Part shown: positions 1-55,474 of the stretch, piece by piece | Layout of the letters: every line of letters begins with the position of its first letter | Numbering within the stretch: the stretch's first letter is position 1 | Sequence record: NC_019517.1 | Source: Escherichia phage FV3 | Reading direction: 5' to 3' (one strand) | DNA length: 64,000 nt | Notes under the pieces: generated by a model | Seen by the model: only the letters and a program-made list of their open reading frames with translations | What the model was told of the DNA's origin: nothing | The model's database searches: none | Program-made: the position numbers and the translations under genes

Positions 1-114
1 TGAAAGCTCTTGTCTGAGAACTGTTAAAACGTGCGCCCAAGAAAACGCTGCACTTGGAATCTACCACAAACGGAAAAGATCAACAAAAAGCTCTCCAAGG
101 AAGACTAAAAAGTC

Positions 115-144
115 TTGACAAAAGTGTTATTAATCTGATATTAT
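115..144 (+). promoter_or_regulatory. sigma70-like promoter (TTGACA, 18-nt spacer, TATTAT)
   Basis: TTGACA at 115-120 and TATTAT at 139-144, ~35 nt upstream of the first ORF start. Confidence 0.45.
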
Positions 145-177
145 CGTTCAGATATTTATAAACCAGGAGAACTAGAT

Positions 178-486
178 ATGCTTAAAATTTTTATTGTTGA
201 AGATAAAGATATTGTCCAGTTGTATGCAAACGAGAATCATAAAGGTATGATCCTGAAGAAGGCAAGCAACCTTCATGAAAACACAATTCAACCTGGTGAT
301 GTAATTAAGATCTCTGGTTATCTGATACCAGACTCCTTGATGAAAATAACTCATCATTGGGGTTCCAATCCGTTCCTTTTTGAAAAGTATTGGGATGTTG
401 AGTCACTTATTGCAGAAAGTGATGATGCATTCCATTACAGCATCCAACCATCTTGCAGAATAACTAACAGGAGGGTCTTTGAGTAG
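178..486 (+). CDS. hypothetical protein
   Basis: 102-aa ORF with ATG start and AGGAGA-like RBS upstream. Confidence 0.5.
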   Translation: MLKIFIVEDKDIVQLYANENHKGMILKKASNLHENTIQPGDVIKISGYLIPDSLMKITHHWGSNPFLFEKYWDVESLIAESDDAFHYSIQPSCRITNRRVFE

Positions 487-1618
487 AGAATATCCACTTA
501 TTGAGTCCATAGATTGTCTTGCCGATCTTCTTGAACCTGACGCTATAGTCTATTATGACTTCGATCAGGTTGCATATCAAGCTGCAGCAAGTTGTGAAAA
601 AAGGACAATTGAGGTAACACATAAAGCCTCCGGACGTAAGAAGGTGTTCAAAACACGAACAGAGTTTTGGGGGAGGCAGAAGAACGCAGTTGGCGGTTGG
701 TTAAAGGCCGAGAACACCAACCGTGAAGCTGCATGTAAAAAAGCTGGCAAGGAGTTTATTCCGTGGACACGTGAAGATTTCGATGTCTTGGATATCCAAA
801 CCCCTGATCCTGTAGAGAACTGCTTGCACACAATTAAGTGTAAAGCTAACGCAGTCCTTAACTATCTTGGTATTCCTGAAGATCGGTGCGTAGGAGTGCT
901 TGGAGGCACAGGTAATTTCAGACTAGATCTTCCCATGCCGGAACGATATAAAGCCAACCGTAACAATACTCTTCGACCACTGTTGCTTGAAGATGCAAGA
1001 CAGTATCTCCAAAAGCAGTATAACGCTCAGGTGATCAACGGTATTGAAGCTGACGACTGGTTAGCTATCCAGCAATTTGAAGGTTGGAACCACTACCAGA
1101 AAACAGGTAAGTTCAACAAGTTTATTATCTCTATAGATAAGGACCAGCGAACACTTCCTGGGCTTGTATTCGATCCGATGAGGAACGATAAAGGTGATTT
1201 TGTAAGAGAAACTCCTATGCTTATTGATAACGGTATGGGTAACATATTCATGAAACCAAACGGAGATGTTGGTGGGTATGGAATGTTGTTCTTCGGTTAT
1301 CAAATGCTATGTGGTGACTCAGCTGACAATATTAAGCCTTACCAAGGTCTTATTGGTAAAGGAAAGTTTGGAGATGCATCTGCATTCTCCTTGCTGTCTC
1401 AGTGCAGCACACCGAAGGAGATGTGGTTAGCAATCATTGATCAGTATAAAAAATGGTTTCCGAAAGGTGCCGTTAAGTATACTGATTTCAATGGTATTGA
1501 CCGTAGGATTTCCGTAGGTCAGTGGATGAGTATAATTTTCGACTGTTTGTATATGAAGCGATCATTCAATGACCAAACAAAACTTGTTAATGTTCTTAGA
1601 AATGTTGGAGCAATTTGA
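479..1618 (+). CDS. 5'-3' exonuclease / flap endonuclease (FEN family, T4 RNase H / T5 D15-like)
   Basis: 379-aa ORF with FEN-family motifs YKANR and GIEADDW; TTG start after AGGAGG RBS, exact start uncertain. Confidence 0.65.
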   Translation: MSREYPLIESIDCLADLLEPDAIVYYDFDQVAYQAAASCEKRTIEVTHKASGRKKVFKTRTEFWGRQKNAVGGWLKAENTNREAACKKAGKEFIPWTREDFDVLDIQTPDPVENCLHTIKCKANAVLNYLGIPEDRCVGVLGGTGNFRLDLPMPERYKANRNNTLRPLLLEDARQYLQKQYNAQVINGIEADDWLAIQQFEGWNHYQKTGKFNKFIISIDKDQRTLPGLVFDPMRNDKGDFVRETPMLIDNGMGNIFMKPNGDVGGYGMLFFGYQMLCGDSADNIKPYQGLIGKGKFGDASAFSLLSQCSTPKEMWLAIIDQYKKWFPKGAVKYTDFNGIDRRISVGQWMSIIFDCLYMKRSFNDQTKLVNVLRNVGAI

Positions 1619-1941
1619 TGACTAAAAACTCTGTAGATAATGCAATTATGGAAGCTGTTTTTGAGGATGACCATACAACAGGCACCATTAAAACAAAAAA
1701 TACATTTATTGTTGCCACAGGTATGTGGCGGTTGTATGAAGATGACACTATTGCATACATCTTGTATACTGATGATTACGCAGATGATCGTGTATGGTCT
1801 GCTGTTTTAAAAGAGGACTGTGAGCTGATCGAGGGTGAGCGGTTATGCATGTTTACCAGTGTGGAAACAGATGTTAAGCTTTGCTCTCTTGTGTTGTTCA
1901 AAGACAAAGCTTATGCCCCAGATGAAGAGGAAACAGTATGA
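1615..1941 (+). CDS. hypothetical protein
   Basis: 108-aa ORF, start overlaps upstream stop (ATGA). Confidence 0.5.
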   Translation: MMTKNSVDNAIMEAVFEDDHTTGTIKTKNTFIVATGMWRLYEDDTIAYILYTDDYADDRVWSAVLKEDCELIEGERLCMFTSVETDVKLCSLVLFKDKAYAPDEEETV

Positions 1942-2567
1942 GAGAAAGACTGCTGTCTATAGACCAGTCTCTTACCCACACGGCCTGCGTTGTATGGGAC
2001 GATGGTAGGCCTGTTCATAAGGTTGTGTTACGAACCCAAAGCTCGTCTGCAAAAGAGAAGAAACCAGGGACGGTTTCTTTTGCAACAGCTGCTGAGCGTA
2101 TTGACTGGATCTGCAAACAGGTTAGATATTATATCCACACGCACCACGTTGACACCGTGGTCATGGAAGGGCTCTCCTTTGGATCGCGAGGAGATGCCAC
2201 ACGTGAACTGGCTGGGTTGTTTTACGGTCTTGAAGTTATGCTCTGGGATGCTTTAGCAGATTGTGAAAATGACGGCCTGTTTAAGGTCCACACAGTGACA
2301 CCAACAACTGCCAAAAAGTTTGCTCGTAGTCATCTTCCTGAAGAACTTGCTTTTGAGGAGAAGAAAAAGCTTGACAAAAAGACGGGTAAAGAGCATACTG
2401 TGAAGAAGCCTGTTACGATGGATAAAAAGTTGATGGTTAAGGCCTGTGAAGTATCTGAACCTGGGTTCCTAGATGGGATCAATTTGGTACAAGGTAAGGC
2501 CGATCTCGCAGATGCTTATTGGATAGGCAGGGCGCATCTGGAGGGATTATCGCAAAGCGTAAAATAA
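1938..2567 (+). CDS. RuvC-like Holliday junction resolvase (RNase H fold)
   Basis: 209-aa ORF; N-terminal SIDQS...TG..VW, central VVMEGLSFGSRGD and C-terminal ADLADAYWIG acidic motifs typical of RuvC-type resolvases. Confidence 0.55.
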   Translation: MRERLLSIDQSLTHTACVVWDDGRPVHKVVLRTQSSSAKEKKPGTVSFATAAERIDWICKQVRYYIHTHHVDTVVMEGLSFGSRGDATRELAGLFYGLEVMLWDALADCENDGLFKVHTVTPTTAKKFARSHLPEELAFEEKKKLDKKTGKEHTVKKPVTMDKKLMVKACEVSEPGFLDGINLVQGKADLADAYWIGRAHLEGLSQSVK

Positions 2568-3094
2568 GAAAGAAAGCTGTCAAAGCCCCCGTTCATAACG
2601 GGTGGCTAAAAGATTCTAAGGATATAGCCAACTTTCGGAAAGAATTGTCAGAAGAGCAGGATGGTCTTGATCCGATCTTGTGCGAACCACTTCGTAAGCC
2701 TTGTTTAGATCATGATCATCTGACTGGTCGTTGCAGGGGTGTTTTGTCCCAATGCACTAATACCTTTGAGGGGTATGTGCTTAAATACTGGATGAAATAC
2801 TGTAACGAGTATACAGATTGCAGTTTATCAGAGGCGTTGCGCCGGATGGCTGACTATCTGGAGAAAGACTACAGCGACTTCCCGCTCCACAAAAACTACA
2901 GGGACGATATGACAAAGTTCTTGAGGAGATGCTCTAAAGCTACGATTATTGCACGGGCAGAATCGGATCTCGATCTTGTCATTAATTCAGAGTACACCAA
3001 GCATGAGGCTATTGAGGCCTACATGCAGGAGTTTATAAAGAAAACTGAGGAGAGAGATTTCTATGGAGACGAAAAAGGTATTCAATCCTTGTGA
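2519..3094 (+). CDS. recombination endonuclease VII-like (T4 gp49 family)
   Basis: CLDHDHLTGRCRGVLSQCTN matches the endonuclease VII zinc/His-Me motif; no in-frame ATG, TTG start at 2519 overlaps upstream gene by 49 nt. Confidence 0.6.
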   Translation: MDRQGASGGIIAKRKIRKKAVKAPVHNGWLKDSKDIANFRKELSEEQDGLDPILCEPLRKPCLDHDHLTGRCRGVLSQCTNTFEGYVLKYWMKYCNEYTDCSLSEALRRMADYLEKDYSDFPLHKNYRDDMTKFLRRCSKATIIARAESDLDLVINSEYTKHEAIEAYMQEFIKKTEERDFYGDEKGIQSL

Positions 3095-3284
3095 TTCAGT
3101 TCTGATCAGGATGAAATACCGTAACTGGAAAGGTGTTGTTGCAGATCGCTGCGTTACTGAGCCTAGTTTATGGTTTGGCTCTACAGATTATCATAAAGAA
3201 GATCAGTGGTTGATGCATGCATTTGATGTAGACAAGGGCGAATATCGTGACTTCGCTTTAAAAGACATTCTTCAGTTTTACTAA
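3063..3284 (+). CDS. hypothetical protein
   Basis: 73-aa ORF, ATG with GAGGAGAGAG RBS. Confidence 0.45.
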   Translation: METKKVFNPCDSVLIRMKYRNWKGVVADRCVTEPSLWFGSTDYHKEDQWLMHAFDVDKGEYRDFALKDILQFY

Positions 3285-3296
3285 GGAATCTTAACG

Positions 3297-4280
3297 ATGA
3301 TGACAAAGTTAACTCTTGAGCAAATTTTAACACTAAAGCAACAGGGATACACCAATAGACAAATTGCTCGTGAATTTCTAGGTCGTGAGTCACGTGAGAG
3401 CTGGATCCGGCTACAGCTTAAACGTGCACAAGAGAATATGTCAGAGATTGTAGGAGAGGCAACGGAGCGCTTCCTTGAAGAACACAAAGGTGCTAAAGTT
3501 TGGGTGTATGATACAGAGACATCCCCAACAAACGGCTGGTTCTTTGGGCATTATAAGACCAACATTCAAACCTGCGGTATTGAAATTATGCCCTATATGC
3601 TAACTTTCGCAGGTAAATGGTTAGACAGCCCCAGTGTGGTTGACTGTGCTCTTCCTGATTACAAAATGTGGGGCGAGGATATCCACAACGATCTTGAGCT
3701 GATTCAAGATTTGTGGTATTATCTGGATAAATGTGATGTAGCAGTAGCACACAACTCTGGTTTTGACTGTGGGTGGGCCAACCAACGATTTGCATTTCAC
3801 GGTTTGCCGCCAACAAGCCCATACAAAGAGGTTGACACCCTCAAGATGATTAAAAAGGCATTCCGTTTGAATGCAAACACGTTAGAGTATGCATGTAAAT
3901 ACTTCCAACTGGCCCGACAGAAACTAATTGACCACACATTTGAAATGTGGATCAAGTGTGTTCATGGTGATCTTGAGGCGTTTAAACAGATGCGGGAGTA
4001 TAATGTTGGGGACATCTTGTCTCTGGAAGGCCTATATTTGCTGGCGCGTCCGTTTGCTAAGCAGCACCCCAACATGTCGTTGTACTACCAAGATGAGGAG
4101 TCAAAAGTTCGTTGCCCACGTTGTGGTGGAGAACACCTTCACGAGGAAGAGGCTTTGGCGTATACTCAACTGAGTGCATTTAAAACCTACCGCTGCGAAG
4201 GTTGTGGATCTGTTGTTCGTGATCGTAACAACATCCGTACCCGAGAAGAGATGAAAAACACCCTGATTCAGATAATCTGA
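3297..4280 (+). CDS. DnaQ-like 3'-5' exonuclease with N-terminal HTH and C-terminal zinc ribbon
   Basis: 327-aa ORF; HTH-like LKQQGYTNRQIAREF, exo motifs VYDTETS, AHNSGFDCGW, YNVGDIL, C-terminal CPRC...CEGC. Confidence 0.5.
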   Translation: MMTKLTLEQILTLKQQGYTNRQIAREFLGRESRESWIRLQLKRAQENMSEIVGEATERFLEEHKGAKVWVYDTETSPTNGWFFGHYKTNIQTCGIEIMPYMLTFAGKWLDSPSVVDCALPDYKMWGEDIHNDLELIQDLWYYLDKCDVAVAHNSGFDCGWANQRFAFHGLPPTSPYKEVDTLKMIKKAFRLNANTLEYACKYFQLARQKLIDHTFEMWIKCVHGDLEAFKQMREYNVGDILSLEGLYLLARPFAKQHPNMSLYYQDEESKVRCPRCGGEHLHEEEALAYTQLSAFKTYRCEGCGSVVRDRNNIRTREEMKNTLIQII

Positions 4281-12413: not shown

Positions 12414-12692
12414 ATGAGCTGCGAAAAATCTTTTTTCATCATCATTTACGGTAAGGATAACTGCCCACATTGTGTAAGAGCAAAAGAATTTGCAGTCAGT
12501 AAAGGCATACCTTTCGTATACAAGACGCTAGGTGAAGGATACACAAAAGAAGAGCTTATCGAGAAGTGTAGCCCATTTGTTCCCAGAACGTTGCCTCAGA
12601 TCTTCTTGGAAAGCAACCTTGACAGTATCCACATAGGTGGTGCTGACGATTTCATCTCTTTTGTTAAGAATGGTTTTGGAGAGAAAAAGTGA
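12414..12692 (+). CDS. glutaredoxin-like protein (phage NrdC-type)
   Basis: 92-aa ORF with CPHC active site and C-terminal PQIF...IGGADDF typical of glutaredoxins. Confidence 0.7.
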   Translation: MSCEKSFFIIIYGKDNCPHCVRAKEFAVSKGIPFVYKTLGEGYTKEELIEKCSPFVPRTLPQIFLESNLDSIHIGGADDFISFVKNGFGEKK

Positions 12693-13549
12693 AAGTTGTA
12701 AAACGGGACGGTAGAGAAGAGTTTTATAACGGAATTAAGGTGATCAAGGCGGCAGAGTCCGCCTTACTTGAGTCTGGACATACTGAAGAAGAAGCTTACC
12801 GGATTGCCTGTGCGGTTAATGAAGTTGTTGCCAACAATCTGCCAACTGACCAGTGCACGATCTCTGTAAAAAATATCCATATCCTTGTTGAAGATGCTCT
12901 TATGGATATGGGTTTAAAATGTGCAGCCAGAGAATACATCCAGTATAGACAGACAAGAGATAATAACAGAGAGGCAGGTGGAAAACTGCTTGCCGATATT
13001 AGTGGCTTCTTGGATCGTACTTGTGATGAATTTACAAAAGAAAACGCAAATAAGCCTACTAATCATGTACACACTCATCGTGACCTGCTTGCAGGAATCC
13101 TTAGCAAACATCTTGCATCAACACAGATCCTGCCAGACCGTGTCTCAGAAGAGCACAACAAAGGCTTCATCCATGTGCATGATCTTGACTACCTGATCAG
13201 TCCGTTAACAAACTGTTGTTTGGTGAATTATCCGGATATGCTGGAAAACGGATTCAACATTGGCAACGCCCATGTCAGTAAGCCGAAGTCAATAGGGGTT
13301 GCAACAACAATCCTTAGCCAAATCTCTAGTGCAGTAGCTAGTGCTCAATATGGCGGTCAGACCATGAGTCATATTGATCATTATTTGGCACAGTATGCTG
13401 AAGCAACTTATGAGAAGAACCTTAAATTTTGTCAGGAACATTGGTTGCCAGATGCTGAGACTGTTGCAATGCAAATGACAGATAAAGACGTGTTTGATAG
13501 TATGCAAACTTTGCTCTACCAAATCAATACGTTAACTTCTGTCAACGGT
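12689..13549 (+). CDS. nrdD: anaerobic ribonucleoside-triphosphate reductase, exon 1
   Basis: N-terminal ATP-cone (VVKRDGREEFY); reading frame stops 1 codon past proposed 5' splice site; exon ends in T. Confidence 0.75.
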
Positions 13550-14347
13550 TAACAAACTGGCCGTTGTAAAACTCTCCTAACCTCATAAGAGGGGTCGGTA
13601 AATCCGGCTAACGGGGAACGCTAAGGCGAAAGCTATGCCAATCCCGTGACTAGTTCTTACAGGAGTTGGAACGGTTGTAACGACTAACGAAAGGCAGAGA
13701 TGCTTGACAAACATTTCTGAACCGAGTAGTGTAGGGGTTAGTTGAAATACTAACTTCGAAAGGGAGAGACTCTATGAAAAAGATCATTCTTAATGGTGAA
13801 GAATCGAACTACGTGATTGATGAGGTGGGAAACGTATACGGAAAACGTGGAATGCTGCACCCCATATTGTGGGGAGGTTATGGAAAAGGTAACAAGCATG
13901 TTAAACGCCGCTATATGTATTCTTTCAACCACAAAGGTAAGAAGATTCGAATCCAAACTTCAAGGGTTGTTGCCTTGTATTGTTTGCCAGATGTCCCAGA
14001 AGACCCTGAAAACTGGGAAGTGAATCATAAAGATGGCAATACATTGAATGATCATCCGTCTAACCTAGAGTGGGTTTTGCCGGAAGATAATAAGAGACAT
14101 GCTTTCCGAACAGGGCTTTGTCCAGGCAAGTGCTACAGGAAAGTGCAGGCATACCAAGGGAAAACCTTGGTGGGTGAATATCCTTCACTCTATGCCTGTG
14201 CAAAAGCCTTAAATTTGAACGTAGGGAACGTCCATAGGGCTATCGAAGGAAATGCCGAAGGTAAGCATCTCACAATAAAGGGTTATTATCTTATTGAAGT
14301 AGAGTAAGAGATAGTCTGGCCCTGTGGAAACACAGGGGTGGAGACAG
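13550..14347 (+). mobile_element. group I intron in nrdD with 5' catalytic core and 3' HNH homing-endonuclease ORF
   Basis: Intervening ~0.8 kb between two NrdD halves; 13550-13773 is non-coding with group I-like elements (AATCCGGCTAACGGGGAACG, TAACGACTAACG R-like); 3' boundary uncertain by ~10 nt. Confidence 0.6.
13774..14307 (+). CDS. HNH homing endonuclease (intron-encoded)
   Basis: 177-aa ORF with VNHKDGNTLNDHPSNLEW HNH motif; RBS AGGGAGAG. Confidence 0.8.
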   Translation: MKKIILNGEESNYVIDEVGNVYGKRGMLHPILWGGYGKGNKHVKRRYMYSFNHKGKKIRIQTSRVVALYCLPDVPEDPENWEVNHKDGNTLNDHPSNLEWVLPEDNKRHAFRTGLCPGKCYRKVQAYQGKTLVGEYPSLYACAKALNLNVGNVHRAIEGNAEGKHLTIKGYYLIEVE

Positions 14348-15607
14348 CAGACTCCATTCATCACATTAAGTTTAGGGCTGGATACTTCGGTCTTTGGTAG
14401 AATGATTACCAAAAACTACTTGAAAGTTCACAAAATGGGTCTTGGTGAAGAACGGATCACACCTGTGTTCCCTAAAGTGCTGTTCTTCTTAGAGGAGGGT
14501 GTCAACATGAACCCTGGGGATCCTAACTACAATTTGAAACGATTGGCCCTAGAATGCTCTGCAGAGCGGATTTATCCTGACTTTGTTTCTGTTCCGCTAA
14601 ATCGTAAAGTGACAGGTTCAACAGACGGCAAAGTAACAAGCATGGGATGTAGGTCGTTCCTTGGCAAATACGTTACCCCGGAGGGTGATGAAAAATACCT
14701 TGGCAGATTCAACTTGGGTGTTGTTAGCCTTAACCTACCAATGATTGCGGCAAAAGCTAAGACGGAAGGTATTGATTTCTTTGCAGTTCTTGACGAATAC
14801 TTGGATCTTGCATACGAGGCTCACCTTGTAAGGGTTAACCGTCTAAAAGGAACAAAGGCAGGGCAGAACCCTATCATGTGGTGTGAAGGAGCTCTTGCTC
14901 GCCTGGATCCTGAAGAGAGTATCGATAAACTCTTCTATGACGGGTACGCTTCCATCAGTATTGGGTATATTGGTGTGTATGAAACCTGTCAGATTTTGGG
15001 CAGAGAGGGTGACAAGGCTTTAGCTCTTGGAATCCTTCAGCACATGAAAGATGCTTGTGATCGATATAAGAAGGAAAGTGGACTAGCATTTAGCTTGTAC
15101 GGCACACCTTCTGAGAGTTTATGCTATAAAGCTGCAACCTGTCTGGATCGTGAATACCCAGAAGTGTTGAAGCACGAGCATGAATACCTCACCAACAGTT
15201 TCCATCAGCCGGTATGGATCAATAGCTCGCCTTTTGATAAGTGGAAGTATGAGGAAGGTTTTGCTATGATCTCCTCTGGTGGCAACATTGGGGACATAGA
15301 GACACCGAATCTGAAAAACAACTTAGATGCTTTAGAAGCTCTTGTTGATTTCGGATATAAACATATTATGTATTTTGGTATTAACCAGCCTGTGGATAAA
15401 TGTCTTAAGTGTGGATTCTCTGGCGAGTTCAGTGCAACAGCTAAAGGCTTTGTATGCCCAGAGTGTGGAAACCATGAAGAAGGAACGATCAGTGTGATCA
15501 GACGCGTATCCGGGTATCTGTCCAGTCCAAACTCCCGCCCTTACAATAAGGGTAAGCAAGCTGAGGTTATAGAACGGGTTAAGCACTACGGAAGTTGTGG
15601 TTGCTGA
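14348..15607 (+). CDS. nrdD: anaerobic ribonucleoside-triphosphate reductase, exon 2
   Basis: Frame open from 14315; C-terminal zinc ribbon CLKCG...CPECG and glycyl-radical motif RVSGYL. Confidence 0.8.
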   Translation, partial: QTPFITLSLGLDTSVFGRMITKNYLKVHKMGLGEERITPVFPKVLFFLEEGVNMNPGDPNYNLKRLALECSAERIYPDFVSVPLNRKVTGSTDGKVTSMGCRSFLGKYVTPEGDEKYLGRFNLGVVSLNLPMIAAKAKTEGIDFFAVLDEYLDLAYEAHLVRVNRLKGTKAGQNPIMWCEGALARLDPEESIDKLFYDGYASISIGYIGVYETCQILGREGDKALALGILQHMKDACDRYKKESGLAFSLYGTPSESLCYKAATCLDREYPEVLKHEHEYLTNSFHQPVWINSSPFDKWKYEEGFAMISSGGNIGDIETPNLKNNLDALEALVDFGYKHIMYFGINQPVDKCLKCGFSGEFSATAKGFVCPECGNHEEGTISVIRRVSGYLSSPNSRPYNKGKQAEVIERVKHYGSCGC

Positions 15608-51854: not shown

Positions 51855-52208
51855 TTAGTGACAATCGCCCCAGTTACGACCACACAAGTATTCACCTGTG
51901 ATCTGGAACGGAACGCCCATCATTTTAGAAGCTTGCCAGAAGCAATGCACCACCATTTCGCCCACAGGGCTCCAGATAAGTTCAAGCTTTCCGTCCTCGT
52001 TCAAGATAGGATCGTATACCGTATTTCCATCCTTGTCAACCACTTCGTTTCCGTCCTCATCCTTGCGTGCCTTTTTGTACTTATGACCGTCGAACACATG
52101 AAGTTTGGCCTCCTGCTCTGCCTTAAATGCTTCCAGTTCTTCGATTGTGTCGAAGGTGTACACAGTCTTATACTTCGGTGTGTCAGGTACTTGAAGTTGG
52201 TACTCATC
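51855..52208 (-). CDS. DNA polymerase (family A), exon 2
   Basis: Begins DEYQLQV (motif C continuation) and ends GRNWGDCH, matching the T7 gp5 C-terminus (DEIQVG...GPNWAICH) as recalled. Confidence 0.75.
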   Translation of the reverse strand, partial: DEYQLQVPDTPKYKTVYTFDTIEELEAFKAEQEAKLHVFDGHKYKKARKDEDGNEVVDKDGNTVYDPILNEDGKLELIWSPVGEMVVHCFWQASKMMGVPFQITGEYLCGRNWGDCH

Positions 52209-53050
52209 CAACAGTTCAGGTAGGTCGTTAAGCTACCCCGCACCATTACGTGCATAGCCATACAGTTTCCCGTATGGATCGGACTATCTCACTGCCTTGT
52301 TACCAAGGCACCTCTCATTTCGACCGCACTTGCTGGCCTACTCTACTCGCTTCTTCACACCAAACTATGTTGGAGCTATGCTTTCGATAGTCTCTGAACG
52401 TTACTACCAGGTGTAGTTTTTAGAGATATGTTTCCACTGTCTTCTTTGCTTTATGGCCCTGACCGTTTCATAAGGATACCCAAGATCCCTAATCTCACAT
52501 TGTCGTAGACCGCTCTGTAACAGTTCGCAAATCTCAATTACCTCATCCTCGGTCAGCACAGCATTGGCATTATACTCGCCGACTGGCCTTACTCTGAGGT
52601 CATTATCGTAGGCGTGTTTGATATTTCCACCAGGGGTGGTCCACTCCAGGTTCCAGTATGCATTGTTGTACTTATTTCCATCCTTATGGTTCACCCATGT
52701 GAGCCTTTCAGGATCAGGGTTTGATACAAAGCATTCGGCAACTAAGTGGTGGACACCTTTTGTGTACTGCTTCCCCTCTATGAACATGGTCACGCAAAGG
52801 TAACCTCGACCATTATCAAAACAAAACATTGTTGTATGATCACGTTTCGATAAAGGTATTGTTCCATCATCAAACACGGTATACCCGTGATAATCAGCTG
52901 ATCTAGCCATTTTAACTACACCCCTTTAGTCTTCGCTGCGGATTAGCATATTGAGCTTTTACCATGTTTAGGTGTAAAAGTCAACTTAGCCTTCCCGTCA
53001 ATTAAAGAGGTTTTCGACGTGCATCACTGCACGAAGCCACAATGTTATTT
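52209..53050 (-). mobile_element. group I intron with HNH homing-endonuclease ORF, inserted in DNA polymerase motif C
   Basis: Exon 1 ends ...YYH with T before the intron and an immediate stop; intron ends in G before GAT GAG; 5' part has AATTGACGGGAAGGC (Tetrahymena AAUUGCGGGAAAGG-like), 3' part has GTTCAGAGACTATCG and GAGATAGTCCGATCC (R/S-like P7 elements). Confidence 0.8.
52404..52910 (-). CDS. HNH homing endonuclease (intron-encoded)
   Basis: 168 aa; WVNHKDGNKYNNAYWNLEW; paralogous to the nrdD intron endonuclease. Confidence 0.8.
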   Translation of the reverse strand: MARSADYHGYTVFDDGTIPLSKRDHTTMFCFDNGRGYLCVTMFIEGKQYTKGVHHLVAECFVSNPDPERLTWVNHKDGNKYNNAYWNLEWTTPGGNIKHAYDNDLRVRPVGEYNANAVLTEDEVIEICELLQSGLRQCEIRDLGYPYETVRAIKQRRQWKHISKNYTW

Positions 53051-55474
53051 ATGGTAATAAATAATACGACGAACACCTTCATCGTACCACCCACGCTTCA
53101 CCATTTGGTGGTGCATGAGTATCCCAACTAAATCACACAACGATGCACCGCCATTTTGTTGGTATGCATTAAGTAAAGAGTGTTTAGATCGGGTCCAGAT
53201 GGCATGACCATCAAAAGAGTAGATAAACTTCTTACCAGTTGCTTCCCAGAATTTCTCCAGATCCTCTTTACGCCCCTTAAGACCGGGGTTGGCATCCCAA
53301 AGCGCATCGATTACCCTTTGCCCCAACTCTGGAGAGATATCCAGCATGTCTGCAACTTTATCTTTTTGTGCCCCGTACATAACCCCATACGTGATAGGTT
53401 TACCGTCGTTACGAGACACCTCTCTGCCTGCTACTTTTGTATATGCCTCAGCATTGTTTTGGTGTGCGTCCCCGTTACTTACAACATCATAATACAGGCC
53501 GTTGTCAAACTCAAAGGCACCCCAAGCCCCGATAAGCTGCTCTAAGTTAGACCCGTCAATACCGATCTCAAAGTATCCTGGAGGAACACCCCACAGACTA
53601 CGCATCTCTTTACCCATAACCACTTTAGGAGATGGTTTAGGCATGTTTGCACAAATACTGTGTTTCTGTCTGGAAGTGTTTGTTAATCCAGAACTTTTAG
53701 CAGGAAGCTTATGGTCAATCTTCAAACGTGGGTGATTAAGAAGACCAGTATCAACCTTATCCTCCTTGATTGGATCAAGTACCGATCTACGGTTTCGCAA
53801 TGATAACCACAAAACGATATCTTTAGCCATCTCTCCGTTCAATTTTTCAAGATTAGGGCATAGGTGCCCAAACGTGTCTTTCAGTTGTGGAGAGGTAATA
53901 AGTGCTCTGGCCTTTCTACGTATCTTCCCAAACACTTCCTTTTTAACCCTTTCTGAGTTAGGGAAGCTTCGGAACTTATGCACAGTTGTCTGAAACTTGG
54001 CATCAGTTTTGTTCCAGAAGTTGATAATTAGGTCACAATACTCTGACTCCAAAAGCTCGTCCATATATGCATATACTCGTGCATCAACATCTGCATCAGG
54101 TAAAGCTTTCTTCTTGCTGTCTTTAGTTACATCCTTAGTTCTCCACATTGTTGGGAGCCAACCAGCACTGATCAGGTATCTCTTAATATCGTCCTGGTTG
54201 CTGATCTTCATAGGTATCTTGCAGTCAGGCATCCGCTTCTGCTGTAGATCACTTATTGCCTGGTCCATTAGCTCTTTAGGTAAAGGATGTGGTGTAGAGG
54301 TCCCTTTAATATACCCCCTTAAGAAATCAGCCATCTTATCGGGATCTTTGCAGCCCATCTCTTCACACCATTTTATCCCCATTTTGCTGACATCCCCTGT
54401 GGAGGTAAATGCTCGCTTAGGAGGAGCTTTGAACTCTAAAGCGCTCATGTCCACAGGATAGCCAAGCTTGTCTTTTAACCATTTCCAACCATTATTGGAG
54501 ATTGTCCCATCCTGGTTAAACGGCTTTTCAGGGAACTTAGGCCGCTGAGACATTGATAACTCTTTTAAAGGAAGTTGTGGTTCAACACGATCAGCGATCT
54601 CTTTCATCCACGCATCGCAGCGGTCACGTAAAGCAATAGCCCCATCTATGTCGAAATACACACCCTGTCGAGCCTGCAGCTCCATCAGGAAATGCTGCAG
54701 CATGCCTCGGCGTAATGCATTCTTCCAGGTAATCTTCTTGAATCCTTTAGGCTTCTCTTTGGCAGGGTCATACATAAAGTTCTGCATGTCAGATTTGCCG
54801 TAGAATACACCTTTTGATTCCGCTACCAACTCTTTCCAGAGCAACTCCTGGATGATAACGTCCTCGAACACACGATCCACATATTTCCACAGCGGAAGCT
54901 CACGCCAGTCATCGATTTGAACTTTCTGGTTACCAAGGGCGTAGCCCCATGCCATAAGGCCATGAGGCCCAACAGGCTGCATTTTCTTGGTAACTGGATT
55001 AAATACTGCGTCCGGACAACCTTTTGGCAAAGGTCGGTCAGGCCACAAGATTCGACTCATAGCCAACGTATCAAACAGATTAACCTGGTGGTCGTTGATA
55101 GTTCCCATACATTTAGGGTCACGGAACATATCAAAATGAACACCGGATAATCTTTCCATCAGCATAAAGTCATAGCTGTAGCAGTTATGGCAGTTCAAAG
55201 CTGTAGGTGACCAGTCTGAGTTACCTGTAAGCCAACCTTCCAACTCTGAAAAATCTGCTATGCGAACATCAAAATCTGTATAAAGGGTCTTCTTTGCCAG
55301 GATGAAGTTCTTAGCCTTCTCTACATCCTCTTCAGAGTAGTGTGTGCGGTCATTTAGAGGAAGGAACAGCATAAAACGGTTCTTATTCAACTCTTTAAAC
55401 AAACCGCAGTGATAATAAAGATCTGGGTCTTCCAGCAAGCCAGAGGCCTCAAAATCGAACGACCACATGCTCAT
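53051..55474 (-). CDS. DNA polymerase (family A), exon 1 (3'-5' exonuclease and polymerase motifs A/B)
   Basis: Exo I FDFEASG; motif A GIDGSNLEQL; motif B RNDGKPITYGVMYG; FDGHAIWTRSKHSLLNAYQQNGGASLCDL parallels T7 gp5; frame stops one codon after H of the HDE motif. Confidence 0.85.

Follow-up and report, generated by a model that had tools for sequence, protein, structure and literature searches.

The DNA polymerase gene of Escherichia phage FV3 is interrupted inside its catalytic motif C by an 842-nucleotide (nt) insert that is, with little doubt, a group I intron removed by splicing and probably mobile. We analysed a 64,000-nt stretch of the FV3 genome (NC_019517.1), referred to below as the window; all FV3 coordinates are positions within it, and the polymerase locus lies on its minus strand. 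The stretch is that of an rV5-like coliphage (Vequintavirus), and its region 51800-55500 matches 121 phage records, mostly at 90-99% identity. The insert has boundaries fixed to the base, homologues at the same site in other phages, a conserved fold and a patchy distribution among close relatives. It also contains an open reading frame (ORF) for a predicted homing endonuclease. The features of the locus are as follows (in motifs and junctions, ^ marks an insertion or splice point).

53051..55474, minus strand: DNA polymerase exon 1, 808 codons, with the exonuclease domain and motifs A and B, C-terminal ...IIYYH (from the ORF list, the T7 gp5 alignment and collinearity with the polymerase of phage nom).
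52209..53050, minus strand: the very probable group I intron, 842 nt, IA2-like, 5' end AAAUAAC with a UAA stop one codon in, 3' end ...CUGUUG, omega-G at 52209.
53037..53054, minus strand: predicted P1, in which exon CCAU and intron AA (53054..53049) pair with the internal guide UUGUGG (53042..53037), with a wobble U53051/G53040.
52931..53036, minus strand: 5' half of the predicted core, with P2, the P3 5' strand, P4, the P5-P5a-P5b arm, P4' and the P6 5' strand (from the Rfam alignment, covariation and the minimum-energy fold of an ORF-less sibling).
52916..52930, minus strand: predicted P6a/P6b 5' strands (ACUA, GGUGUAG), complementary to CUACACC and UAGU at 52416..52403.
52404..52910, minus strand: intron ORF, 168 residues, predicted I-HmuI-like HNH homing endonuclease (...VNHKDGNKYNNAYWNLEW...), from a match to PDB 1U3E and a weak one to Pfam HNH_3.
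52209..52403, minus strand: 3' half of the predicted core, with P6', the P7 5' strand (52392..52388), P7.1, GUA, P7.2, P3', P8, P7' (52286..52282), P9, P9.1, P9.2 and omega-G (from the Rfam alignment, covariation and the minimum-energy fold).
51855..52208, minus strand: DNA polymerase exon 2, 117 codons and the stop, starting with the motif-C catalytic Asp-Glu and terminating GRNWGDCH.

The two exons read as one T7 gp5-like polymerase. The initial annotation of this DNA had described an 809-residue ORF that carries motifs A and B, tracks T7 gp5 and stops one codon after IIYYH, a downstream ORF reading DEYQLQV...GRNWGDCH, and an HDE motif parted between H and DE; the ORF list and a gp5 alignment that runs through the junction bear all of this out. 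The 809-codon ORF at 53045..55474 (minus) closes with ...RRIIYYHK and a stop, a single codon beyond the His, and the 118-codon ORF at 51855..52211 (minus) is (TTG)DEYQLQV...GRNWGDCH followed by its stop. The joined C-terminal region is alignable to residues 468-658 of T7 gp5, with E 2e-13 when taken as a fragment and 6e-16 as part of the whole spliced protein. Motif A is GIDGSNLE here and GIDASGLE in T7, motif B is KPITYGVMYGA and KTFIYGFLYGA, and motif C is YYH^DEYQL and WVH^DEIQV, with the alignment continuous through the junction. At the N terminus, FDFEASGLLE lies opposite T7 SDIEANALLE (Exo I), a stretch that is not significant alone, and exon 1 alone scores 27.9 bits against Pfam DNA_pol_A, under its 34.3 cut-off. 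Since motifs A (D), B (K..YG..YG) and C (HDE) are collinear with those of the solved T7 gp5, the protein is, by sequence, a family-A, T7 gp5-like polymerase, and this alignment places the insertion between His808 and Asp809, i.e., at H^DE of motif C. The exon 1/intron junction reads ...UAUUACCAU^AAAUAACAUUGUGGC... and the intron/exon 2 junction ...CCUGAACUGUUG^GAUGAGUACC..., and conceptual splicing ligates them as ...UAUUACCAU^GAUGAGUAC... (also written TATTACCAT^GATGAGTAC), with codons ...UAC CAU^GAU GAG.... The conceptual product is a 925-residue polymerase, identical to that of phage nom at 916 of 925 positions.

Natural alleles devoid of the insert fix its ends. Phages nom, slur16, Murica and Pr121LW lack exactly the 842 nt and have a contiguous 925-residue polymerase. 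These intron-less relatives are about 95% identical to FV3, and with exactly the 842 nt missing from them the insertion is not a chance feature. The nom record carries a single 2778-nt polymerase coding sequence with the nucleotide junction CCAT^GAC; a boundary placed one base to either side no longer matches it. Because the nom junction fits at that boundary alone, the insert, preceded by ...UACCAU and terminating ...CUGUUG, follows a U and ends in G, which settles to the base the 52209-53050 interval that had been proposed. Across the rV5-like relatives, about 115 records in all, the distribution is patchy, with the intron missing from about half, present with its ORF in a quarter and present in ORF-less form in another quarter; an evenly spaced sample of the matched spans falls into the following size classes.

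Full length, with the 842-nt insert (intron and ORF): CM1, APECc02 and FFH2; about a quarter of the sample.
About 514 nt shorter (ORF-less, 328-nt SYGMH1 type): SYGMH1, HMD-6, JLBYU08 and JEP1; a few of the sample.
About 566 nt shorter (ORF-less, 276-nt rV5 type): rV5, RudolfGeigy and PDX; about a quarter of the sample.
Exactly 842 nt shorter (empty site): nom, slur16, Murica, EduardKellenberger and many others; about half of the sample.

The insert matches the group I intron family over the full length of its model. Run in E-value mode, RF00028 aligns to 53060..52259 over model positions 1-253 with 30.4 bits (E 1.6e-5, or 7e-4 for the whole window), and the alignment puts a 510-nt insertion in the P6 loop. 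In phage SYGMH1 a 14-nt hairpin (CAUCC-GAGA-GGAUG) stands in place of the ORF, and the remaining intron is about 99% identical to that of FV3. The core-like sequences that had been noticed in the insert, including those thought to resemble P7, can be located as P4 (AAUUGACGGGAAGG), the P7 5' strand (GUUCAGAGACUAUCG) and the P7 3' strand (GAGAUAGUCCGAUCC). A possible P10, read from the sequence, would pair the opening GAUG of exon 2 with the intron CAUU just 5' of the guide. P7.1 and P7.2 occupy the interval from P7 to P3' and are linked by GUA (in FV3 an expanded P7.1, then GUA, then GGCC...GGUC; in the rV5 type UUCC-GAAA-GGAA GUA GACC...GGUC), an arrangement quoted as diagnostic of subgroup IA2 (PMC3428280). 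By this P7.1-GUA-P7.2 criterion, the predicted structure is IA2-like.

Covariation was scored on a MAFFT alignment (A2) of 12 ORF-excised cores from the same YH^DE site, drawn from four Vequintavirinae genera and from Aeromonas and Pseudomonas phages, using a hand-drawn P1-P9.2 structure. Phages phiTE, CB7 and 4L372D were excluded because their ORF starts inside P5, which makes excision ambiguous. P5b and the inner P8 pair were omitted from the count; MAFFT misplaced the distal P5a/P5b and the inner P8 pair, elements of lineage-dependent length, which is also why the retained P5a cells pair in just 73-75%. Over 65 pairs in the 12 homologues, standard pairing was found in 95.8% of cells, compared with 34-39% when the 3' partners were slid by 1-3 columns, and double-sided changes occurred in 26 of the 65 pairs, compared with 2-8 in the slid controls. 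None of 500 shuffles attained the observed pairing or covariation values. Pairs changed on both sides are found in P2 (6/6), P3 (3), P7 (1), P7.2 (3), P8 (4), P9 (3), P9.1 (2) and P9.2 (3), so that the P3/P7 pseudoknot and the core helices P3-P8 are retained with compensatory changes. P4 is mostly invariant; P1 is invariant across all 12 homologues except that an A-U pair is once replaced by G-U, and the splice-site U.G wobble is present in 12/12. Energy minimisation of the ORF-less form independently yields the P5 arm, the P6a hairpin, P7.2, P8, P9, P9.1 and P9.2 (z = -2.6). Judged from this alignment, the ribozyme core is under clear purifying selection and is kept even without the ORF.

The ORF is looped out of P6 and is related to I-HmuI, the endonuclease of the SPO1 intron and a nicking HNH enzyme. 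A phmmer comparison with I-HmuI (PDB 1U3E) gives E 3.5e-6 across the HNH region, where NHKDGNKYNN...NLEW of the FV3 ORF lies opposite DHKDGNKDNN...NLRW. The ORF is intact, with 94-99% amino acid identity in about 29 phages, and tblastn finds relatives of it in 1590 phage records; outside Vequintavirus and phage Av-05, the closest (about 50% identity) occupies the same intron position in Pseudomonas phage SPA01. Just upstream of its AUG, ACUA and GGUGUAG overlap a Shine-Dalgarno-like AAGGGG and are complementary to CUACACC and UAGU, which are the final codons and the stop. Av-05 has a compensatory variant of this pairing (GGUAUAG/CUAUACU), and in phage SSE121 an 11-bp stem includes the start codon (AGGAUCAAUGA/UCAUUGGUCUU). 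These complementarities suggest that the folded intron probably masks translation initiation of its own endonuclease, an effect put forward earlier for other introns of phages.

In a search with the intron, 111 records matched. Introns sit at the YH^DE site well beyond the rV5-like phages: in Av-05 and 18-1-2 (Avunavirus), A5-4, SSE121 and PVP-SE1 (Seunavirus), phiTE, CB7 and CR9 (Certrevirus), Aeromonas phages phiA009 and 4L372D (Plateaulakevirus) and Pseudomonas phage SPA01 (Pakpunavirus). The Aeromonas and Pseudomonas introns sit in very different polymerases (LDYH^DEFAV, IAYH^DEAQLEV). Every intron collected from this site has A(A/G)(A/G)U.. at its start, preceded by ..UACCAU, and ..UG at its end, followed by GA(U/C)GA. 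What varies on the shared core, which at least four Vequintavirinae genera have, is the ORF: it may be absent (in two versions), an I-HmuI-like HNH gene in P6, another HNH gene from L5, or a LAGLIDADG gene. The last is found in PVP-SE1 (locus excerpt 1201..2119), where the ORF-less P6 hairpin is kept and the gene is placed after the P7 5' strand. In phiTE (excerpt 1950..2636), CB7 and 4L372D (excerpt 959..1698), the different HNH gene has its start codon in the P5 loop, and its first codons (AUG GG. AAU CAG CAG) themselves form P5'/P4'. Three unrelated genes in different ribozyme loops would fit several endonucleases having independently invaded one intron. A second intron site, in polymerase motif B (...ITYG^I/VMYGAQ...), is used in Av-05, 18-1-2, SSE121, phiTE and CB7, usually with another HNH ORF; this intron scores 47-47.5 bits against RF00028 in 18-1-2 and CB7 and is absent from the FV3 window.

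An orthologue is known from CB7, in which the HNH-containing insertions between polymerase pieces CB7_49/51 and CB7_51/53 were found by reverse transcription PCR (RT-PCR) and Sanger sequencing to be spliced out in vivo (PMC7344957). CB7_51, CB7_50 and CB7_49 correspond to the motif-C intron, which is 95% identical to that of phiTE and has the same junctions (UACCAU^AAGUAAC and UUG^GAUGAA). CB7 and phiTE belong with FV3 to the subfamily Vequintavirinae and share its exon context, UACCAU^AA(A/G)UAACAUUGUGGC... and ...UUG^GAUGA. Their ribozyme is homologous (the 3' core of phiTE is 74.8% identical over 141 nt), with compensatory changes in shared helices. Unlike FV3, they have a different and shorter HNH gene (CB7_50, 127 residues), whose start is in the P5 loop and which continues through P5'/P4', and they carry the additional motif-B intron.

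The carboxylate triad of Escherichia coli Pol I consists of Asp705, Asp882 and Glu883, and we take Pol I position 881 to be the motif-C His that precedes the catalytic Asp. Self-splicing introns of the T7-like phages PhiI and W31 lie at Pol I position 881 (PMC3428280), so that, with textbook Pol I numbering, their site is the FV3 site. The PhiI and W31 introns further resemble that of FV3 in their T7 gp5-like family-A host gene, in belonging to subgroup IA2, in an HNH ORF in P6a and in a ribosome-binding site thought to limit endonuclease expression, a likeness drawn from their description rather than from sequence. Their hosts are small podoviruses, whereas FV3 is a 137-kb myovirus, and self-splicing and homing have been demonstrated for PhiI, whereas for FV3 we infer both. 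Among introns at other polymerase sites, those of SPO1, SP82, Bastille and Pf-WMP3 lie at Pol I position 674 and that of phiL7 at 676 (PMC3428280). The introns of Bacillus phages SPO1 and SP82 (I-HmuI, I-HmuII) share with FV3 a group I intron in a family-A phage polymerase and an ORF homologous to I-HmuI, but differ in their insertion at 674 rather than 881 (PMC3428280) and in their Gram-positive host; no ribozyme sequence similarity between them and the FV3 intron was detected in the searches made. The T4 introns in td, nrdB and nrdD (sunY) are alike in sitting in a nucleotide-metabolism or replication gene, in an endonuclease ORF looped from a peripheral helix and in an early stop codon. They differ in their GIY-YIG I-TevI and I-TevII endonuclease families and in their host genes, though FV3 has a separate nrdD insert (see below).

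On this evidence, the route to a functional polymerase and the spread of the intron can be pictured as follows. Exon CCAU and the first two intron bases would pair with the guide UUGUGG, setting the U.G wobble at the 5' splice site within P1, and the conserved core would fold into P3-P8 with the P3/P7 pseudoknot, P7.1/P7.2 and P9-P9.2. An external guanosine would then attack after U53051, and the freed exon 1 would attack after the terminal G52209, giving ...UAC CAU^GAU GAG... and an mRNA for the 925-residue polymerase. Unspliced RNA would stop one codon into the intron and yield a protein without the motif-C carboxylates, and splicing would therefore be needed for replication. The ribosome-binding region of the endonuclease would pair with the 3' end of its ORF (GGUGUAG/CUACACC), probably restricting translation from the folded intron. 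Presumably, when a relative with an intron-less polymerase allele co-infects, the I-HmuI-like HNH enzyme nicks or cuts that allele close to the insertion site, and the intron is copied in during repair.

A number of observations weigh against a spliced and mobile intron. At the gathering threshold of RF00028 (50 bits), Rfam gives no match in the whole 64-kb window. The covariance-model search proposed in the initial annotation thus came out two ways, with nothing at the gathering threshold and the full-length match in E-value mode. We attribute the low score to the insertion penalty of the ORF, since the ORF-less introns of SYGMH1 (328 nt), rV5 (276 nt) and Avunavirus 18-1-2 score 75.6, 64.7 and 91.2 bits, all above 50; because of these siblings and the full-length alignment, we do not take the null as a refutation. 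For the endonuclease, Pfam HNH_3 scores 17.7 bits, below its 24.8 cut-off, and the position of I-HmuI Asp74 is Asn in the FV3 ORF, whose activity is a prediction. Homing in FV3 is likewise predicted, from the known behaviour of the endonuclease family, and splicing is predicted at one remove, from RT-PCR of the CB7 orthologue. Finally, Murica and Pr121LW have empty sites though their flanks are identical to those of intron-plus alleles, so either the endonuclease is not sweeping everything or losses are frequent. Even so, the initial annotation's call of a group I intron architecture encoding an HNH endonuclease is supported, the architecture by the boundaries, the full-length RF00028 match, the covariation, the I-HmuI homology and the splicing of the CB7 orthologue, and the endonuclease by the I-HmuI match.

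On another reading, the ribozyme splices but the intron is no longer actively mobile: the HNH ORF would be inactive or irrelevant, and the patchiness would come from recombination among co-infecting rV5-like phages and occasional precise loss. Introns that lack the ORF but are otherwise intact are indeed common (the 328-nt SYGMH1 type, and the 276-nt rV5 type that about a quarter of relatives have), the empty sites of Murica and Pr121LW lie on the exon haplotype that intron-plus CM1 has, and the Pfam HNH_3 score is subthreshold. We nevertheless consider loss of mobility unlikely, given an ORF of 168 residues that has stayed intact and closely similar in some 29 phages, an H...N...N motif that is kept and aligned with that of I-HmuI, and the roughly 50% identical homologue at the same intron position in the distant Pseudomonas phage SPA01, a placement hard to explain without endonuclease-driven spread. 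Far less probable is a split gene that does not splice, in which a degenerate intron or a free-standing endonuclease cassette separates two polypeptides that assemble into a polymerase. NrdA of Aeromonas phage Aeh1, split by mobE, is reportedly made as two assembling polypeptides. For the FV3 polymerase, a TTG at 52211 could serve as a start for exon 2, and GenBank relatives annotate two separate "DNA polymerase" coding sequences; in CB7, an HNH-associated insertion in the nicotinamide phosphoribosyl transferase gene did not splice (PMC7344957), which counts for such a split. Yet we saw no Shine-Dalgarno sequence upstream of the TTG (...CCUGAACUGUUGGAUG), and His would part from Asp-Glu inside one active-site beta-hairpin. 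Moreover, the ribozyme core is selected with compensatory changes and retained where the ORF is absent, and the orthologous CB7 intron splices (PMC7344957), so the initial annotation's dismissal of a two-subunit split stands. An intein or another in-frame insertion at the protein level, which the initial annotation had also set aside, is rejected. The gene can host one, as phage VB-EcoM-WM has an in-frame 323-residue intein-type insert (C...GN^C) elsewhere in exon 1, but the FV3 insert of 842 nt is not a multiple of three, UAA comes one codon in and closes the exon frame, no Hint-type sequence is present, and the insert ORF is in a different register with its own start codon.

The flanks of the site differ between alleles. 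After the site, the intron-plus alleles (FV3 52208..52197, SYGMH1, CM1 and rV5) read GAT GAG TAC CAA. Intron-less Murica and Pr121LW have this same flank (GATGAGTACCAA), Murica equalling CM1 exactly for >30 nt downstream, and intron-less nom and slur16 read GAC GAA TAT CAG (GACGAATATCAG). The latter two differ from the intron-plus alleles by 4 synonymous changes in 12 nt, with about 0.54 expected from the rest of the gene (Poisson P about 0.002, for an a priori position). Such flank differences could reflect co-conversion tracts or endonuclease-resistant target variants. One could go further and see the motif-C site of phage family-A polymerases as a natural arena where a single ribozyme lineage combines with, and parts from, several unrelated endonuclease genes in independent events while targets evolve resistance, the nom/slur16-type allele specifically being an endonuclease-resistant "immune" allele; we offer this tentatively, as an idea with the odds somewhat against it.

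FV3 contains another interrupted gene, nrdD (anaerobic ribonucleotide reductase), at 12689..15607 (plus strand), where an insert of 798 nt occupies 13550..14347. On the Pfam NRDD profile, the first exon spans positions 1-154 and the second 155-562. The insert follows a U and ends in G, with a possible P1 (CAACGGU/GGCCGUUG) that includes a U.G wobble. An HNH ORF lies within it at 13774..14307 (E 6e-7 to Pfam HNH_3), and RF00028 gives a weak match, of 25.1 bits, to the 3' end of the insert. Phage rV5 lacks the insert, and the joined FV3 exons, AAC GGT^CAG ACT, encode the same residues as AAC GGG CAA ACT in rV5. Found in about 33 of 119 relatives, the nrdD insert is probably a second group I intron.

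In the relatives, the polymerase gene carries further insertions. VB-EcoM-WM (PQ014731) has in polymerase exon 1 (locus excerpt 2160..3131, minus) the in-frame 323-residue insert GDAH^CYSGDTQILT...VAVCGN^CNNAKAY, with the host Gln replaced by Cys; Pfam gives no match on this insert, and its intein-like reading comes from the terminal residues only. With the motif-B intron, this insert and three unrelated endonuclease genes, the polymerase gene in these relatives is a hotspot for selfish elements. In FFH2, WalterGehring, navn and O157 typing phage 4, relatives that match query positions 1-3676 only, an extra HNH or AP2-domain gene adjoins the polymerase, which suggests that a free-standing endonuclease is inserted just upstream of the polymerase start in those relatives. 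Sixteen to nineteen unannotated MG0656xx records named "Campylobacter phage" (host C. jejuni) are 86-94% identical to the FV3 polymerase and nrdD regions and look like mislabelled or co-isolated rV5-like coliphages.

The split is visible in GenBank, where close relatives show "DNA polymerase family A" twice together with "H-N-H homing endonuclease". In the rV5 record (DQ832317, excerpt 356..3307), the polymerase is annotated as exon 1 only, and small "hypothetical" ORFs 225-227 span exon 2 and the 276-nt intron, so the type genome mis-annotates its polymerase; the 5' end of the rV5 coding sequence also differs from that of relatives, likely through an indel. The rV5 paper gives the polymerase 775 residues, and the only introns it mentions are those of the terminase gene (PMC3606486). 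A full-text literature search (Vequintavirus, intron, DNA polymerase) found no description of a Vequintavirus polymerase intron and returned two Certrevirus papers only. The design, the site and an orthologous intron are already in the literature, and no concept is changed.

Within the family, the intron accounts for the annotation of rV5-like genomes, in which a truncated polymerase appears beside an orphan "hypothetical protein" or second "DNA polymerase", and the gene should be annotated as one joined 925-residue coding sequence. Given the splicing predicted here, Vequintavirus coliphages would join the phages whose essential replication enzyme depends on RNA self-splicing. Pol I site 881 (H^DE) was first described in T7-like podoviruses; in the large myoviruses that infect Escherichia, Salmonella, Cronobacter, Pectobacterium, Aeromonas and Pseudomonas, a widely shared ribozyme occupies it. 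Since very close relatives differ just in intron state (empty, ORF-less or ORF-bearing), and many belong to the BASEL collection or are other cultivable K-12 phages, these variants offer a convenient system for work on homing and marker exclusion.

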